This document shows positions 4,241 to 31,978 of a DNA stretch of 64,000 nt, piece after piece (position 1 is the first letter of the stretch; the number at the start of each line of letters is the position of its first letter). The stretch is from sequence record NC_054911.1; one strand, written 5' to 3'. Under the pieces are notes generated by a model. That model did no database searches and was not told the origin of the DNA. It saw nothing but the letters and a program-made list of their open reading frames with translations. The stretch is from Escherichia phage ECO4. The position numbers and the translations under genes are program-made.

Positions 4241-4701
4241 TAGTAAAGGTCCTCAGAGTAAAGTTCTTTTTCACTACCACCACGTTCAATACGTACTTGT
4301 CCAGCGTAAGTTGCAATAATCATTGCTTCTTCACGTGTCCAATAATTACTGTATTGGTCAATAAACCCTTGGTCATCATCACAAACTTGTTGAGTAACTA
4401 ATTGAGGTTTAACTACATCTAAAACTTCGGCCATATCTTTAGAATAATGACGAGCACCTGGAATAATAAGAGTTCGTCCATCTTTTAATTTAAAACGGTT
4501 GGCTGCACAGACAATTCGTCGTTGATACTTTTGATTTTCATCCCAATACGCAGTCTGCCAACAAATTTCAGGAACTTCTTTCAGAATATCTTCTTCTGTG
4601 CATTTATAACCATGCGCTTTAAATTTTTCAGCAAGACTTTCTGGAGTTTCACGAGATAAAGGAACATTCAGCATTTTTAAACGATTGATAAATGGGTTCA
4701 T
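4240..4701 (-). CDS. Hypothetical protein (153 aa)
   Basis: ORF, start/stop coupled with neighbours. Confidence 0.6.
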
Positions 4702-5027
4702 TTAAACCATCCTTTAATACGTTGCCACAAAGTTTTCTGTTGAGCTTTGTTAACACCAATTGAGCGAATAACTGGTTGAGATTCCTGGAATTCTTTATAA
4801 TCGGCAAGGTAAATTTCGTAAGCTGCATCTGTAAAGGAACTTATCGCTGCCATGAAATTATTGCGAATACCTACTGGAGCATCTTTACTTTCACGAATAA
4901 TCATGTATTTACCAGTCTTAATCTTTACAATAGTTCCAAGATAAGCTCCATGGTACCAAATATCCCAACCCTCTTGAGTAGGTTCTGCACAACGACGAAG
5001 TTCATTGATAATTTCTAACTTGTTCAT
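4698..5027 (-). CDS. Hypothetical protein (109 aa), motA-proximal
   Basis: ORF, ATGA-type overlap with upstream gene. Confidence 0.6.
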
Positions 5028-5037
5028 TATTTATTCC

Positions 5038-5673
5038 TCACAGTTCAGATGCTACAATGATTACTGCTTCAATGTTTTCTTCCGAGCGTTTAATGTCAAG
5101 ATACACATTACCGTTTTTAGCGATTTTACATGACATTCCGATATCAGTAAATTTCTGAATATGATGTTCCATCATTTTGTATCCAAAAATTCGCATATTT
5201 CCATTGTTGTTAATTTCAAAATTACGAATTCCGTGAGTGCGTTTTTCTAAAATAGCGAGATAGTTACTACGATAAGTTTCGACCTTTTTAAGAACAAATC
5301 CATTTTCATCTAAAAGTTTTAACATGAGGTCTTTATCTTCTTCCATATCAGAAGTAATCTCACGAGCTTTACGAGTTGCTCGTTTTTTCAGTAGTTCCGG
5401 AGCATTTTCCTGTGCGTATAAAGTTGCTGCATTTGAAATAATATCCTGAGCTTCACCAGTAATGATTAATCCATCACCTGATTTCTCCACCAGGCCTTTT
5501 TTAATCAACACCCCAATATTACTATTAACTACTGCGTTACCTAAATCTGGATGCACCTCACGAACTTCTACAGCTGTAATGAAATCTTTCTTAGCAATAG
5601 TAATTAAAATCGCAGCAGTTTTTTCATTCAGAACATCGTTAGAAGCTTTGATGATGTAAGTTACTTTAGACAT
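5038..5673 (-). CDS. motA: Middle transcription activator MotA
   Basis: 211 aa, MSKVTYIIKASNDVLNEKTAAILITIAKKDF... matches T4 MotA. Confidence 0.95.
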   Translation of the reverse strand: MSKVTYIIKASNDVLNEKTAAILITIAKKDFITAVEVREVHPDLGNAVVNSNIGVLIKKGLVEKSGDGLIITGEAQDIISNAATLYAQENAPELLKKRATRKAREITSDMEEDKDLMLKLLDENGFVLKKVETYRSNYLAILEKRTHGIRNFEINNNGNMRIFGYKMMEHHIQKFTDIGMSCKIAKNGNVYLDIKRSEENIEAVIIVASEL

Positions 5674-26715: not shown

Positions 26716-27234
26716 TTAATAACCTCGGTCTTGACGAGCGAAGTTTTCAGCATTCTTCAGATAATAAAGTTTAAAGATTTCTTCAGCAGTAAGGCCGAGA
26801 CCTTGGAACATGTTCAGAACGAAATGAAGAATATCAATCATTTCGAATTTAATTTCCAACTGGTCTTGTGGAGACAAATCAGTAATCAGAGTTTCACGAC
26901 GTTCACCATGCTGCGACTTCCAAGGCTTCCATACAGCAGATGCATCTTTTTCGCCATTGCTCATACCACCAAGAGATGTCAGAAGTTCACGGAATTCATC
27001 GTCAATATAATCTTTCTGATTACGCAGCCAATCGACAACTTCACCTGCAGTAGCCAAATCATCAGGATGACGGTTATATTCAGGTTTATCTTTAGCTAAA
27101 CGAACCTGCAAAGATTTCTGCATATCAAGCATAACTTGCAGTGGGTCTTTTTCGTCACCGAGAATATCCCAATATTCATTTTGAGCTTTATCAGCGCCTT
27201 CGATCAGTTGCGAACATTCATTAAAGTAAGCCAT
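26716..27234 (-). CDS. 56: dCTP pyrophosphatase gp56
   Basis: 172 aa from ATG 27234 (MAYFNECSQLIEG...), SD AAAGGAAAAATA; the listed 203-aa form is an upstream extension. Confidence 0.9.
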   Translation of the reverse strand: MAYFNECSQLIEGADKAQNEYWDILGDEKDPLQVMLDMQKSLQVRLAKDKPEYNRHPDDLATAGEVVDWLRNQKDYIDDEFRELLTSLGGMSNGEKDASAVWKPWKSQHGERRETLITDLSPQDQLEIKFEMIDILHFVLNMFQGLGLTAEEIFKLYYLKNAENFARQDRGY

Positions 27235-27305
27235 TATTTTTCCTTTCAATTCATGGGTTAGTAGATTAATTATACAATAAATATATAAAGCAATAAGGAG
27301 GACAT

Positions 27306-27506
27306 ATGGTACAAAAATTAATGGCACTTGTTAATGCCATAAAAGGTAATAAAAAACGTATAGCTTTTACTATTTCTGCTATGATAGGAATTTTACTCTG
27401 GAATTTTGTTTTATCACCAATTGCTATTGCTCATGGCGTTAATATTCCAGTAATTACTCTCGATACATTCGTAGATTTAGCATTTGCTTTGGTTGGGTTA
27501 ATTTAA
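27306..27506 (+). CDS. Plus-strand small membrane protein (66 aa, two predicted TM helices)
   Basis: Strong SD AAGGAGG 5 nt before ATG; hydrophobic; lies in the gap between 56 and 61 on the opposite strand to all neighbours. Confidence 0.5.
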   Translation: MVQKLMALVNAIKGNKKRIAFTISAMIGILLWNFVLSPIAIAHGVNIPVITLDTFVDLAFALVGLI

Positions 27507-28531
27507 ATCTTAGCATATTTAGATAGCCGCATTTTAGCCATCAACCCTTGGGCAATATTATTTTTCATATATTCCATAATTTGTTCAGGGGTTGCACCTT
27601 CCTTTCTAATCATATCATTAACATCTTTTGATTTCCAGGGAGATTTGTCCCAAAACATAACCCTTTCTCCTGCATCAACCAATTTAGTCATTCGTTTAAT
27701 AGTGTCAGGATGACGAGGTTCATTATCTAAAACCCATACACGTCTATCTTTAAATGGAACAATTTCTAGGTCTAATTGACCACCCGTAATAGCTATACCG
27801 TTTTCAATAAAAAGTGAATCTATAGGTCCTTCTAGAACATATACATCACCATCTTTAACCCGTTCAACTCCATAGATTTTTGTTGCCTCAGGATAAGCTT
27901 TGATGGTGATATATTTTTGAGGAGCATCTTTCTTTAATGCACGTCCTTGAAAAGACTCAGCTTTTCCATTAGCATTATAAATTGGAATAACAAGACGAGG
28001 CTCAGATATTTCCTTTTTATATGTTCCCGGTGCTATACTATTAACTAATTTAGGCCATTCGGTTGTAAACCAAAGATATTTCCATTTATCCTTTGGAATA
28101 CAGCGAGCTTTTACGTATTTTATAATTGGATGGTCTTCCGCCAGTTTATCTAATCTAATACATGACGGAAGAGATTTAATTATTTTCTTCTCAGGTTGTT
28201 TAGAAAGTTCTTTAGGTTTTTCTACTGGACGACTTTTACCTTTTTCTTTTCTTATTTCAAAGATATACTCACGATATAAATCAGGTTCAAACTCCTTTAA
28301 ATATATTCCGATTGGTGCATGATAGTTACAGTTATAACAATGAATATTTCCTTCATTATTATCACCATAATACCATCCACGGGCTTTATTTTGGTCGGTT
28401 TTTGAATCTCCACAAACAGGGCATCTAAACCGCAATTTAAAAGTTGAACTATTATTTACTTGTGTGAATTTAGGTAAATGAGCTAATGCACGATATGCAA
28501 ACTCATTATCAATCCAAGGTATTGATGACAT
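27503..28531 (-). CDS. 61: DNA primase gp61
   Basis: 342 aa; zinc finger CPVCGDS...CYNC; matches T4 gp61. Confidence 0.95.
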   Translation of the reverse strand: MSSIPWIDNEFAYRALAHLPKFTQVNNSSTFKLRFRCPVCGDSKTDQNKARGWYYGDNNEGNIHCYNCNYHAPIGIYLKEFEPDLYREYIFEIRKEKGKSRPVEKPKELSKQPEKKIIKSLPSCIRLDKLAEDHPIIKYVKARCIPKDKWKYLWFTTEWPKLVNSIAPGTYKKEISEPRLVIPIYNANGKAESFQGRALKKDAPQKYITIKAYPEATKIYGVERVKDGDVYVLEGPIDSLFIENGIAITGGQLDLEIVPFKDRRVWVLDNEPRHPDTIKRMTKLVDAGERVMFWDKSPWKSKDVNDMIRKEGATPEQIMEYMKNNIAQGLMAKMRLSKYAKI

Positions 28532-28533
28532 TT

Positions 28534-28698
28534 TTACTCTTCTTTTTCTTTAGATTCCTCTTTTTTCTTTTTAGGAATCTGTTCAGGACCTTTATTTACT
28601 ACAGCGCCTGACGTTGTTCCAGTAGAGATATTTTCAGGATTACCACCTGAATCTCCAGCGACCATATCTTCTTTAATAAATTCTTTATATGTTTTCAT
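28534..28698 (-). CDS. Small hydrophilic ORF (54 aa)
   Basis: SD AGAGG before ATG 28698; stop 2 nt before gp61 ATG. Confidence 0.4.
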   Translation of the reverse strand: MKTYKEFIKEDMVAGDSGGNPENISTGTTSGAVVNKGPEQIPKKKKEESKEKEE

Positions 28699-28710
28699 AT
28701 TAACCTCTAT

Positions 28711-29325
28711 TCATAAAAGCATTAAAATTTGGTCATCAATAGAAACATTTACTTTAGACTGTTTTTCGGATGGTAATTCATATCCACATATTACAATTTT
28801 GTGATCAATATCAAAATACACAGAAGCAATATGATTAATGCTGTTTTCAGTAAAGTCTAAATCAACATCAATATCTTTTTGACCAAAGCCCAAAGGATAA
28901 ATAATGCGAGTAATTCGATTATCTTTAACAAAGATTCCACCGACATACTCTGTACTGCGTTTAAAGTCTACACGCCGACGAAATGAAAAATATTCAGGCT
29001 CTTTATGAGCTCGGCTCATAGGACACAACGAGTAACTAGAATAAGAGATGTCAAATCCTACACCTTCGATATGAGCCATAGCGTCATGATTAAACCAATT
29101 ATAATCGTACGCCAAATCCATTAGATTATAATATGTAAAAGGCACCGGATTAACATCATTAGTCACAAGCATGTAATTAGCAACTGCTATAATTTCATTG
29201 TTTTTAACGAATACAAACCGTGATTGATGCGAATGGCCTGGACCTGCGTTTTCACGATTAATGATATAACACTGGGCACCTTTATATTTGTATGTATCTT
29301 TGCACTTGTGCATTTGATAGAGCAT
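28711..29325 (-). CDS. Hypothetical protein (204 aa), 61.x position
   Basis: ORF between primase and sp; candidate accessory or anti-defence gene by position. Confidence 0.6.
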   Translation of the reverse strand: MLYQMHKCKDTYKYKGAQCYIINRENAGPGHSHQSRFVFVKNNEIIAVANYMLVTNDVNPVPFTYYNLMDLAYDYNWFNHDAMAHIEGVGFDISYSSYSLCPMSRAHKEPEYFSFRRRVDFKRSTEYVGGIFVKDNRITRIIYPLGFGQKDIDVDLDFTENSINHIASVYFDIDHKIVICGYELPSEKQSKVNVSIDDQILMLL

Positions 29326-29618
29326 TATTCACCTACCACTTCAGCGATGATATTTTTGTTATTAAAGTTTTTATCGCAATACAGAACATAATTATACTGC
29401 ATTACACCACCAGACTTAAGCTGTTTTTGTACTTCAGCTTTCATTTCAGGACGATCGCGCTCAACGATATTCATAATATCCGCTTCAATTTGAGTTTCAA
29501 CCTCAGTCTGATCAGCAGTCATAGACCATTCACACAAATCTTTATCATAACCTGCCATAGCAGGCTGAGCAGCACAAGAAGCCAAAGCAAAAATTGTAGC
29601 AAAAATAAATTTTTTCAT
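29325..29618 (-). CDS. sp: Spackle periplasmic protein (superinfection exclusion)
   Basis: 97 aa with cleavable signal peptide MKKFIFATIFALASCAAQPAMA; position between 61 and 41. Confidence 0.75.
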   Translation of the reverse strand: MKKFIFATIFALASCAAQPAMAGYDKDLCEWSMTADQTEVETQIEADIMNIVERDRPEMKAEVQKQLKSGGVMQYNYVLYCDKNFNNKNIIAEVVGE

Positions 29619-29644
29619 GATAATCTCCTCAGTAGTTTATGTTT

Positions 29645-29676
29645 ATATAGTATCTCAATTTCCAACAAAAGTAAAC
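29645..29676 (-). promoter_or_regulatory. Early promoter-like element upstream of sp
   Basis: GTTTAC, 18 nt, TACTATAT. Confidence 0.4.
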
Positions 29677-29678
29677 AG

Positions 29679-29978
29679 TTATTTTAAAACTTCTGTGTAA
29701 TCACATGTTACAAACTGTTTCTCTAGCTTGACGATTTTACGAAAGTATCTTTTACATTGACGAATCTGTCGCTTAGTAGGGCGCACAGCAAACTTAATAA
29801 ATTCCACTCGACCAAATGGAGGGCTTTCTTCTGATGGAATATCTAACACCAATTCCCACGTATCTGCAATAAGTGCTTTGAATTGAGTATTTTTCCTAAC
29901 GTTATACGGAGTAGGTTTAAATAAAACAATATGCATATTATCCTCGGCAATCCACTTCACATACTTTCTTGTCATCAA
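29679..29978 (-). CDS. Hypothetical basic protein (99 aa), 61.4-like position
   Basis: ORF adjacent to dmd. Confidence 0.55.
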   Translation of the reverse strand: MMTRKYVKWIAEDNMHIVLFKPTPYNVRKNTQFKALIADTWELVLDIPSEESPPFGRVEFIKFAVRPTKRQIRQCKRYFRKIVKLEKQFVTCDYTEVLK

Positions 29979-30120
29979 TGAAAGCTTTAACTAATGCTTT
30001 ATTAACTTCAGCATACTGAGTAGTAGCCCATTGAACGTCATCTTTCATCATTGTGGTTTCTTTAGTAAACATGCTTTCATTCTTAAACCACCCCATAAAA
30101 ACTACCTTTACCAATTCCAT
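29938..30120 (-). CDS. dmd: Dmd antitoxin-like protein (inhibitor of RnlA/LsoA)
   Basis: 60 aa, immediately next to gene 41 as T4 61.5. Confidence 0.7.
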   Translation of the reverse strand: MELVKVVFMGWFKNESMFTKETTMMKDDVQWATTQYAEVNKALVKAFIDDKKVCEVDCRG

Positions 30121-30147
30121 AACAATCTCCTCATTTAACCAACAAGA

Positions 30148-30179
30148 CTACTATACCATAGTCTTGTCAGCTTGTAAAC
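30148..30179 (-). promoter_or_regulatory. T4-type early promoter upstream of dmd
   Basis: GTTTACAAGCTGACAAGACTATGGTATAGTAG. Confidence 0.5.
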
Positions 30180-31606
30180 TAAAATTTTAATTCATTTGCC
30201 AAAGCATCTAACTGAGCTCGAGTCGATTCGTTTCTTTGATAGCGATTCTGCTCAGCTTGTATCTGTTGTGAACCTGCTACCTCACTCACTTCAGTTGGAG
30301 TAGAATCTTGTTCAATTTCTACCCATTTCTGATTTCCTTTTTGAACACCCATCAAAAACTTATTCCACTTGTTCTTATCACCATATCGTGATTTGATTTG
30401 CTTAATGAGTTGTTGTTCAGCAGCTGCTAACTCCTCGGTTTCAATGACTGCAAGCATAAAATCAGCTGTTGCTGGAAGACCGGCAGATTCTGCAATATCG
30501 CTCATGTTAACATCAGAAGAATCCCAAGCTTGTTTACCAACCTGTGCTGCAGTCCAAAGAACAGTTTCGGTTTCAACAGCCAGAGCACGCAATTCCTCTG
30601 CAATAGCTTTAACAGTTGTGTAACTATTTTCTGAATAAACTCGGATGCGACAAGATTTACAAATACCCAGATAGTCGACAATAATGATTGTTGGAACAAA
30701 ATTCTTCTTGAGCTTCAATTCGTTTAAAAGTGATCGAAATGTATTAGCATCTGCTCCACCGGTAGGATACTGTTTAACGATTAAACGACCGAGAGTAGAT
30801 TTCTCACACCATTTTTCCATTTTTCCTTTATACTCAGCGTAAGAAATATGCCCATCATCAATGTCATCAAGAGAAACATCAAGCATATTAGCATCAATAC
30901 GCTTAGCACAGACTTCTTCTGCCATTTCCATGGAGATGTAAAGAACATTATGTCCGAGCTGTAAATAATCTGCTGCCAATGAACACAGACCTAATGACTT
31001 ACCAACGTTAACGCCAGCCATTAAAACGTTCAGTGTTCCAGTCTCAGCTCCGCCTTTAGTAATTTTGTTTAGAATTCTGAGTTTAAATGGAACCTTACGA
31101 GCTTTATTCATATAAGATAGCCAACGTGCTTCGTAGTCATCCATCCAATCATGACCAACGTAACTATCAAATGAAATTGATAATGCTTGGCGCATGATGT
31201 CAGGAATAGCACCAACATCCGGCATTTTCTTATTTCGTTTTTCCGGAGGAAGCTCAGCATTAGTTTGAATTTCGATTATTTTAGACGTAGCATTAAACAT
31301 CGCCCTTTGCTGAACATATTTTTCTGTTTCTTTTACTAACCAACTGTGGTCTTCTGGAGAATCGGCTAGTTTTGAAATAAGTGTTTTTACACCAGAATAT
31401 TCTGTTTCAGTAAATGAACTATTTTCTAATGCAACATTTAACGCATTAATAGATGGAACGCTATGGTACTCATTAACATGAGATTTAATTAATTTGAATG
31501 TATTTTTAGCTGGACCACTTTCAAAATATTCTGAATCCATATACGGCCAAACTTTTGAAAAATAAGCTTGATCAAATATGAGATGAGAAAGAATAATTTC
31601 TACCAC
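30179..31606 (-). CDS. 41: Replicative DNA helicase gp41 (DnaB family)
   Basis: 475 aa, Walker A GVNVGKS, matches T4 gp41. Confidence 0.95.
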   Translation of the reverse strand: MVEIILSHLIFDQAYFSKVWPYMDSEYFESGPAKNTFKLIKSHVNEYHSVPSINALNVALENSSFTETEYSGVKTLISKLADSPEDHSWLVKETEKYVQQRAMFNATSKIIEIQTNAELPPEKRNKKMPDVGAIPDIMRQALSISFDSYVGHDWMDDYEARWLSYMNKARKVPFKLRILNKITKGGAETGTLNVLMAGVNVGKSLGLCSLAADYLQLGHNVLYISMEMAEEVCAKRIDANMLDVSLDDIDDGHISYAEYKGKMEKWCEKSTLGRLIVKQYPTGGADANTFRSLLNELKLKKNFVPTIIIVDYLGICKSCRIRVYSENSYTTVKAIAEELRALAVETETVLWTAAQVGKQAWDSSDVNMSDIAESAGLPATADFMLAVIETEELAAAEQQLIKQIKSRYGDKNKWNKFLMGVQKGNQKWVEIEQDSTPTEVSEVAGSQQIQAEQNRYQRNESTRAQLDALANELKF

Positions 31607-31615
31607 ACTTACTCC

Positions 31616-31978
31616 TTAAAAGAATTTAAATTTTTTCTTTGACCTTTTATTAAATGCATCTTGTAGTTGCATTGTAATACATTTTTCTACATGAGGAGCT
31701 AACTCAGCTTTTCTTTCTTGGTCAAGAACAGCAAAGTCCATTACGACTTTTCCATCAACCCAATCTAATTTTGTCACATACACAATGTGTGTAGAACCAT
31801 CTTCTAGTTTAATGACAATCTCCTGGATAACATTTTCCATAGCGGATTTAATTATCTTAAGAGACTCATTAAAAAGACGTTCTTTTCTTTCTTCTTCCCC
31901 CTCCGAAGAGGGGGATTCATCGATAATTTCTAGATCTAAGTCTAAATCATCTTTATTCATTAAATTCTTCCATATCAC
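31616..31978 (-). CDS. 40: Head vertex assembly chaperone gp40
   Basis: 120 aa ORF between uvsX and 41. Confidence 0.7.
   Translation of the reverse strand: MIWKNLMNKDDLDLDLEIIDESPSSEGEEERKERLFNESLKIIKSAMENVIQEIVIKLEDGSTHIVYVTKLDWVDGKVVMDFAVLDQERKAELAPHVEKCITMQLQDAFNKRSKKKFKFF

Follow-up and report, generated by a model that had tools for sequence, protein, structure and literature searches.

The interval between genes 41 and 61 of Escherichia phage ECO4: a probable insert of anti-toxin and Spackle genes beside a conserved small protein resembling the arm of the major capsid protein

The object of this analysis is the interval between the replicative helicase gene 41 and the DNA primase gene 61 of Escherichia phage ECO4 (NC_054911.1), examined within a window, i.e., the whole stretch of DNA under study, of 64,000 nucleotides (nt). 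It is very probable (roughly 0.9) that this interval represents the variable site of Tequatrovirus in which four accessory genes, coding for anti-toxins and for Spackle, have been inserted between gene 41 and the conserved gene pair 61.1-61. The region reproduces almost identically a locus that has been studied thoroughly in phage T4. An earlier note on the same DNA had proposed a counter-defence hotspot between primase and helicase; this is correct, and the hotspot was already known, since the 41-61 region of T4 has been named a possible "anti-TA (toxin-antitoxin) island" whose remaining genes are "attractive anti-toxin candidates" (Srikant et al. 2022, PMC9391042). What remains of interest is the likeness of the small protein gp61.1 both to the arm of the capsid protein gp23 and to a capsid targeting sequence, together with an apparently unique frameshift in adfA.

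The four genes are considered an insert because their distribution is patchy and the content of the site is variable. Counting the records of the phage collection that gave a tblastn match, Sp was found in 902, Dmd in 799, TifA in 681 and AdfA in 485, vs 2438 for the primase gp61. The island has sharp limits, gene 41 on one side and 61.1 on the other, and between them relatives have from 0 to 10 inserted genes: none is present in the Aeromonas phages 31.2 and 65.2, in Pseudomonas phage PspYZU05 and in one metagenomic relative, where the order is uvsX-40-41-(61.1 homologue)-61; four are present in T4 and ECO4, five in the RB18-type phages and ten in RB69. With 1395 records, 61.1 is the most widespread of the five genes of the interval (485-902 for the others); it shows neither a patchy presence nor a place inside the variable insert, and belongs to the conserved backbone uvsX-40-41-61.1-61. 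As a backbone gene with the broadest distribution in the interval, it is thus a poor candidate for an assignment by association with its neighbours.

With respect to the T4 island (dmd, tifA and adfA) and to sp, ECO4 shares the genes, their order, their strand and the position of the promoter upstream of dmd, and differs in a few substitutions per protein and in an apparently private 1-nt deletion in adfA. The same plan is visible in RB69 (Mosigvirus) and in the RB18/RB32-type phages, where dmd-tifA adjoins gene 41, the sp-adfA pair is kept and 61.1 lies directly upstream of 61. RB69 differs from ECO4 in harboring six more genes (imm, imm.1 and the four ORFs 032c, 033c, 040c and 041c, which have no assigned function; 2093-2501 and 4653-5399 of the compared stretch), a shorter and more potent TifA, an AdfA allele with Arg164 that does not neutralise DarT1, and a 61.1 of the long-leader form with 92 amino acids (aa). 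The RB18/RB32-type phages differ in an extra gene of 118 aa between adfA and 61.1, at a point corresponding to about 28695-28745 of ECO4. The RB18 product is paralogous to AdfA over the C-terminal half of the latter (Pfam AdfA, E value 2.3e-8), and the gene is bracketed by a 49-nt direct repeat (597-645 and 955-1003 of the compared stretch), the copies being exactly 358 nt apart; the cassette lying between the repeats accounts for the 358-bp length difference between ECO4 and its RB18-type relatives, and it looks like one gained or lost by recombination. These larger versions of the island would be a better source of new inhibitors than the T4 set, particularly RB69 032c, 033c, 040c and 041c and the RB18-type half-paralogue of AdfA.

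The ECO4 window belongs to a T4-like phage (Tequatrovirus) and is, at the interval, 98.2% identical in DNA to Shigella phage Sf24; a 1.9-kb query around the interval is covered to at least 80% by 328 phage records, most of them from Tequatrovirus. The five open reading frames (ORFs) that the earlier note had placed at 28534-30120, flanked by the primase and helicase genes, are all real and all located on the minus strand, one of them having been called too long at its 5' end (see below). Their products are 94-99% identical to the T4 counterparts (identity counts with T4 proteins are given with the stop column removed), and the gene order, 61/61.1/61.2/sp/61.4/dmd/41, is colinear with that of T4. 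The lower boundary is gene 61 (27503-28531, minus strand; 337/342 residues identical to T4 gp61) and the upper one is gene 41 (30179-31606, minus strand; 473/475 identical to T4 gp41). Only 1 nt separates dmd from tifA and 2 nt separate 61.1 from 61, while sp and adfA overlap by 1 nt, the only sizeable gaps of the interval being the 58 nt ahead of dmd and the 60 nt ahead of sp. An early-promoter-like site (TTTACA, 17 nt, TG-TATAGT) is located on the minus strand at 30150-30178, between gene 41 and dmd, and scores highest for sigma-70 in the region (10/12, the -10 being an extended one). Since promoter-like matches across the region are not above the level of shuffled sequence (8 vs 7.6), the promoter is assigned on the basis of its position and of the literature, an early T4 promoter in the same position having been reported to drive dmd-tifA (PMC9391042). 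A terminator scan of the region found none.

The first gene after this promoter is dmd (61.5; 29938-30120, minus strand), encoding an antitoxin-like inhibitor of the RnlA/LsoA toxins. Its 60-aa product matches Pfam PF17587 over the full length (1-60 of 60, E 1.8e-45) and the PDB chain 5hy3_B "Antitoxin Dmd" (E 9.6e-37), and is identical to T4 Dmd in 59/60 residues (98%), suggesting that ECO4 Dmd would likewise bind and neutralise RnlA/LsoA.

Immediately downstream, tifA (61.4; 29679-29936, minus strand) encodes a ToxN inhibitor of 85 aa, assigned by its identity to T4 gp61.4 (82/85) and its match to Pfam DUF7279 (E 1.9e-20). The basic cluster in the centre, RPTKRQIRQCKRYFRK, is the same as in T4, so that homology to T4, basic cluster and a place directly downstream of dmd in one operon, i.e., the features of the TifA family, are all present; no sequence relative of TifA was found in the PDB. 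The ORF of 99 aa originally called here (29679-29978) starts from a TTG at 29978, inside dmd. The true start is the ATG at 29936, since this codon is preceded by GAGGA and yields the 85-aa length of T4 gp61.4, the TTG has no ribosome-binding site, and the phrog_2375 match begins at residue 15 of the 99-aa call, which corresponds to the same ATG. It is known that tifA encodes a protein inhibitor that interacts with ToxN, that T4 escapes toxIN through amplification of dmd-tifA, and that the TifA homologues of T2, T4, T6 and RB69 all inhibit ToxN (Srikant et al. 2022, PMC9391042); given its identity to T4 TifA, the ECO4 protein probably binds and inhibits ToxN as well. The T4 amplifications arise through recombination between short flanking homologies. 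In ECO4, a 19-nt imperfect direct repeat (29613-29631 and 30115-30133; 84% identity, copies 502 nt apart) has one copy over the ribosome-binding site and start of sp and the other over those of dmd; it thus brackets the dmd-tifA unit and is a candidate for a homology of this type.

Upstream of adfA lies sp (61.3; 29325-29618, minus strand), encoding Spackle, a periplasmic superinfection-exclusion protein of 97 aa with a signal peptide (MKKFIFATIFALASCAAQPAMA↓G). The protein matches Pfam PF25676 T4_Spackle (1-96 of 96, E 1.3e-44) and the PDB entry 6x6o "Protein spackle" (E 8e-62), and is identical to T4 Sp in 96/97 residues; the crystallised mature protein (chain 7cn6) begins to align at residue 23, just behind AMA, as expected if the signal peptide is cleaved off. 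Spackle acts in superinfection exclusion by inhibiting gp5, the lysozyme in the tail of incoming phages (PMC7677548), and the 96/97 identity suggests that the ECO4 protein would inhibit the gp5 lysozyme domain stoichiometrically.

The fourth accessory gene, adfA (61.2; 28711-29325, minus strand), encodes anti-DarT factor A, with 204 aa vs 208 in T4. Residues 1-201 match positions 1-204 of the 211 of the Pfam profile PF23813 (E 8.5e-132; 437 bits vs a gathering cut-off of 27), and 193 of the 204 residues are identical to T4 gp61.2; no sequence relative of AdfA was retrieved from the PDB. The gene is known to counter DarTG (Srikant et al. 2022, PMC9391042), and a His at position 164 (RB69 numbering) permits the binding of DarT1, while an Arg does not (PMC11257639). 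The alignment with T4, RB69, Sf24 and RB18 places His165 of ECO4 AdfA (codon 28831-28833) at the position of RB69 R164, so that the protein carries the DarT1-neutralising His allele.

The 3' end of this gene exhibits a peculiarity. The DNA comparison with T4, Sf24 and RB18 revealed that a run of five T in the relatives is reduced to four in ECO4 (28724-28727, minus strand), and this 1-nt deletion frameshifts the last eight codons, turning FNAFMNRG-stop into LMLL-stop. ECO4 AdfA consequently ends in SIDDQILMLL and loses the conserved C-terminus SIDDQIFNAFMNRG, which is common to T4, RB69, Sf24 and the RB18 paralogue, RB18's own AdfA ending in D. The form with four T had 0 exact matches in IMG/VR, and among the matches listed from 468 phage records there was no identical full-length adfA, the best full-length ones carrying one gap; the frameshift stems either from a mutation private to ECO4 or from an error in sequencing the homopolymer. 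In the same stretch (28700-28735, minus strand) the last codons TAATGCTTTTA are followed by 12 nt and then by TAATAT, an arrangement resembling the middle promoters of T4 that depend on MotA (a TGCTTtA MotA box and a -10 TAnnnT). A transcript from this candidate promoter would start just inside 61.1 and so serve gene 61, and the promoter could be the reason why this stretch is conserved and, in RB18, repeated.

As for the claims of the earlier note on these proteins, a failure of the Dmd and Spackle assignments to align would have counted against it, and both align over the full length, confirming a Dmd-like antitoxin of 60 aa and a Spackle with a signal peptide. The placing of Spackle among anti-defence factors is mistaken, in that Spackle is not an inhibitor of host defence and is directed instead against incoming phages. 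The three ORFs listed as uncharacterised turn out to be two known genes, the 204-aa one being adfA and the 99-aa one tifA, and only the 54-aa ORF, 61.1, is truly uncharacterised. The proposal that all three are fresh counter-defence candidates is therefore very improbable. It might draw support from the fact that they are "hypothetical protein" in most phage records and that a 2025 functional-genomics annotation table lists all three as "Unknown"; for 61.2 and 61.4, nevertheless, the Pfam AdfA match and the T4 literature already refute it, and the sole uncharacterised ORF, 61.1, is a backbone gene. That adfA and tifA are still labelled as hypothetical indicates that database labels trail the literature.

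According to the account favored here, transcription would proceed from the early promoter just after gene 41 through dmd, tifA, sp, adfA, 61.1 and 61, and the small proteins Dmd, TifA and AdfA would each neutralise one host toxin (RnlA/LsoA, ToxN and DarT1, respectively), standing in for the host's own antitoxin, which is labile and disappears once the phage has shut off host expression. Spackle would be exported to the periplasm and block the digestion of the cell wall by the gp5 of later-arriving T-even phages. The protein gp61.1 would stand outside the insert, as a backbone product and a mini-paralogue of the gp23 segment across the prohead-protease cleavage site. The functions of the accessory genes were demonstrated in T4 or RB69 and are carried over to ECO4 on the strength of the 94-99% identity. 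In T4, omics data assign 61.2, sp, 61.4 and dmd to the early class in both RNA and protein, and in a genome-wide CRISPRi-ART knock-down dmd was the only gene of the interval with a fitness cost, the host being RnlAB+.

Some points weigh against this account. Every function assigned in the ECO4 interval is one transferred by homology. In the CRISPRi-ART data, obtained on a laboratory host, the knock-down of 61.1, 61.2, sp and 61.4 was scored "Not Fit", i.e., without a fitness cost, and the benefit of these genes therefore depends on the host. Moreover, the wild-type dosage of tifA is insufficient against plasmid-borne toxIN (PMC9391042), and the removal of adfA from T4 causes no phenotype on DarTG1 hosts, which has been explained by a second factor, AdfN (PMC11257639). 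Lastly, the frameshift described above removes a motif kept from T4 to RB69, and the ECO4 copy of AdfA may be impaired.

The remaining gene of the interval, 61.1 (28534-28698, minus strand), is the backbone gene paired with the primase gene and encodes a conserved small protein still unexplained in one of the most intensively studied viruses. Its product of 54 aa matches phrog_1823 (E 7e-34) and is identical to T4 gp61.1 in 52/54 residues, and a GAGG is located 7 nt upstream of the ATG. Three parts can be distinguished, i.e., a leader (residues 1-10, MKTYKEFIKE), a core similar to the N-arm of gp23 (11-38) and a Lys/Glu-rich tail. Searches of NCBIfam and PADLOC gave no match for any of the five interval proteins, and gp61.1 had none in Pfam either. 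The core contains 13 invariant columns among 15 sequences, from phages of Escherichia to those of Acinetobacter and Aeromonas; because of this invariance across genera, we rejected the idea of gp61.1 as a mere leftover of gene 23 without meaning. The structure of ECO4 gp61.1 is predicted with low confidence (mean predicted local distance difference test score 60), with a short helix at residues 4-11 only.

A search of 1.84 billion representative proteins retrieved 51 clusters of the gp61.1 family, about half of them long forms of 110-250 aa, in which a conserved domain occupies the N-terminus and the 61.1 core is found close to the C-terminus. This N-domain is predicted as a confident helical domain, for which a Foldseek search against the PDB found nothing (best E 1.2). 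Some members of 239-251 aa (P0040, P0054, P0058 and L010:4001-4720) do not end at the basic tail, which is followed by a second stretch similar to the leader, FKQFVE(G/S)LE↓A, and by one more domain of about 90 aa, so that these proteins look like a small polyprotein with several putative prohead-protease sites. In the databases, homologues of 50-165 aa are named "major capsid protein", "major capsid domain-containing protein" and, in one case, "methyltransferase"; the misleading capsid names are due to a gp23-like motif of about 35 residues.

The likeness to gp23 is specific. A profile built on 15 gp61.1 homologues, compared with the whole PDB, matched only T4 gp23 (residues 58-100, E 1.6e-7), and a second profile, built independently on 23 long-form homologues and including no short T4-type 61.1 protein, matched gp23 residues 49-98 (E 1.7e-10), the next unrelated match having an E value of 0.03. 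In ECO4 gp61.1, 16/37 residues are identical to gp23 residues 57-93, and the cleavage site of gp23 (LTE65↓A) is aligned with IKE10↓D. It is known that the prohead protease gp21 cuts off the first 65 residues of gp23, and that gp23 residues 66-105 are located within the prohead, where they stay disordered until head expansion and probably lie on the scaffolding core; the core of 61.1 is likewise predicted to be disordered. The two proteins differ in that the HK97-fold body of gp23 is absent from gp61.1, and in that gp61.1 ends in its Lys/Glu-rich tail at the point where gp23 continues into the Gol region and the N-fist.

The leader bears a second likeness, to the capsid targeting sequence of the internal proteins (IP) of the T4 head, which gp21 cleaves and which enter the host along with the phage DNA: MKTYKEFIKE is identical in 8/10 positions to the MKTYQEFIAE of IPII and IPIII, and IPI begins with MKTFKEF. 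Mutagenesis has shown that positions 4 and 7 of this sequence are required for targeting and positions 8 and 10 for processing, and that its 10 residues are sufficient to load foreign proteins into T4 heads (PMC9026906). All four mapped positions (Y4, F7, I8 and E10) are identical between gp61.1 and IPIII, and among the 945 Met-started reading stretches of the window gp61.1 is the only one with the targeting-sequence pattern. IKE10 also conforms to the gp21 motif, hydrophobic-x-Glu, as do LTE65 in gp23, LRE10 in gp24 and IAE10 in IPIII; this match is in itself no proof of cleavage, and the site is a predicted one. The Glu preceding the core is invariant in the family (72/72 members), a residue L, I, V, M or F being located two positions before it in 67/72, vs a background of 3%, and in the long forms the linker before the core contains two to four [LI]-x-E motifs, these being 13-fold enriched relative to the N-domain. 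From the alignment with gp23, the leader, the motif and the structural context we infer that gp61.1 may be taken into the prohead core and cut there by gp21.

How such a protein would act can be read in more than one way. The reading that we tentatively prefer, giving it somewhat less than an even chance, is that the leader is a capsid targeting sequence directing gp61.1 to the scaffolding core, where gp21 would cut after Glu10; a peptide of 44 residues (4.6 kDa) similar to the gp23 N-arm would then remain in the head, possibly to be injected together with the DNA, or, alternatively, would occupy the contact sites of the gp23 N-arm during assembly. Besides the likenesses described above, including the second leader-like stretch and the further domain of some homologues, this reading is favored by the company of the gene, since the head-assembly gene 40 belongs to the same module. 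The early RNA of 61.1 is no objection to packaging, because IPI-III and gp40 also belong to the early RNA class; like gp61.1, moreover, the internal proteins are dispensable in the laboratory. The post-leader part of gp61.1, however, is gp23-like and unrelated to the internal proteins, which vary greatly among T4-like phages (PMC9026906), whereas 61.1 is near-universal. Several observations also stand against packaging. A literature search on gp61.1, alone or combined with the capsid targeting sequence, gave no relevant paper and no report of gp61.1 in T4 heads, and the main text of the HIDEN-SEQ preprint does not mention the genes of the interval; gp61.1 is unclassified in the time-resolved T4 proteome; the long-leader homologues lack this type of N-terminal leader; the mature peptide is acidic (isoelectric point 5.0), unlike the basic internal proteins; any structural role must be dispensable, given the cost-free knock-down in the laboratory; and the invariant Glu could simply be part of the conserved core. 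With greater reserve, packaging might be proposed for the whole gp61.1 family (short form phrog_1823, long form phrog_2086), near-universal in the T4-like phages of proteobacteria, which would then be a family not recognised before. Its members would derive from the gp23 arm, enter the prohead core (in T-even phages by means of a genuine capsid targeting sequence), be cut by gp21 at the conserved hydrophobic-x-Glu site, and act as an assembly cofactor at the contact sites of the gp23 N-arm or as a fourth, conserved type of injected internal peptide of the head.

The constant association with the primase gene would agree with a different explanation, namely that 61.1 is an upstream ORF coupling the translation of gene 61, or that it encodes a small primosome subunit. 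From T4 to the phages of Aeromonas, Acinetobacter and Pseudomonas, 61.1 is always found immediately upstream of the primase gene, and in ECO4 only the 2 nt already mentioned separate its stop from the start of gene 61, the encoded tail being rich in Lys. This explanation appears unlikely, since the spacing is 39-128 nt in RB69, Lazarus, Aeromonas 31.2 and the loci L010-L012; coupling is thus not a feature of the family, the distance varying from 2 to 128 nt. A coupling ORF would, moreover, need no invariant peptide core, and the sole detectable homology of gp61.1 is with a capsid protein. That same homology might suggest a decoy, i.e., an early-made mimic of the gp23 N-arm that binds and blunts a host immune sensor or protease recognising the major capsid protein. 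Capsid proteins are known triggers of abortive-infection systems, and the Lit protease is activated by the Gol peptide of gp23 (residues ~93-122), which directly follows the 61.1-like region; 61.1 adjoins the anti-TA island and is dispensable on the laboratory host. We regard a decoy as decidedly unlikely: the gene has a near-core distribution and synteny (1395 records) rather than that of a patchy accessory gene, its core is almost unchanged over the 15 sequences compared whereas proteins engaged in an arms race usually diversify, and neither PADLOC nor Pfam provides a link. The narrower version, with gp61.1 as a mimic of the Lit-activating Gol peptide, was rejected, since the similarity to gp23 stops at residue ~95-100, before most of the Gol region. 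If the preferred reading, i.e., that gp61.1 is loaded into heads and cut by gp21, were true, a new component of the T4 head assembly pathway would be at hand, and the labelling of homologues as "major capsid protein" would be accounted for.

A few further observations concern the surroundings of the interval. Rfam gave no family match across 27000-31800, and four plus-strand ORFs scanned in or beside the interval had no match to a PHROG family. The dam methyltransferase gene, which in T4 lies between 56 (dCTPase) and 61, is absent from ECO4 (27232-27502). A plus-strand ORF of 66 aa is present at 27306-27506, predicted to be membrane-associated and matching phrog_2024 over the full length (E 8e-31), and in RB69 a small plus-strand ORF, RB69ORF029w, is also located between genes 56 and 61.

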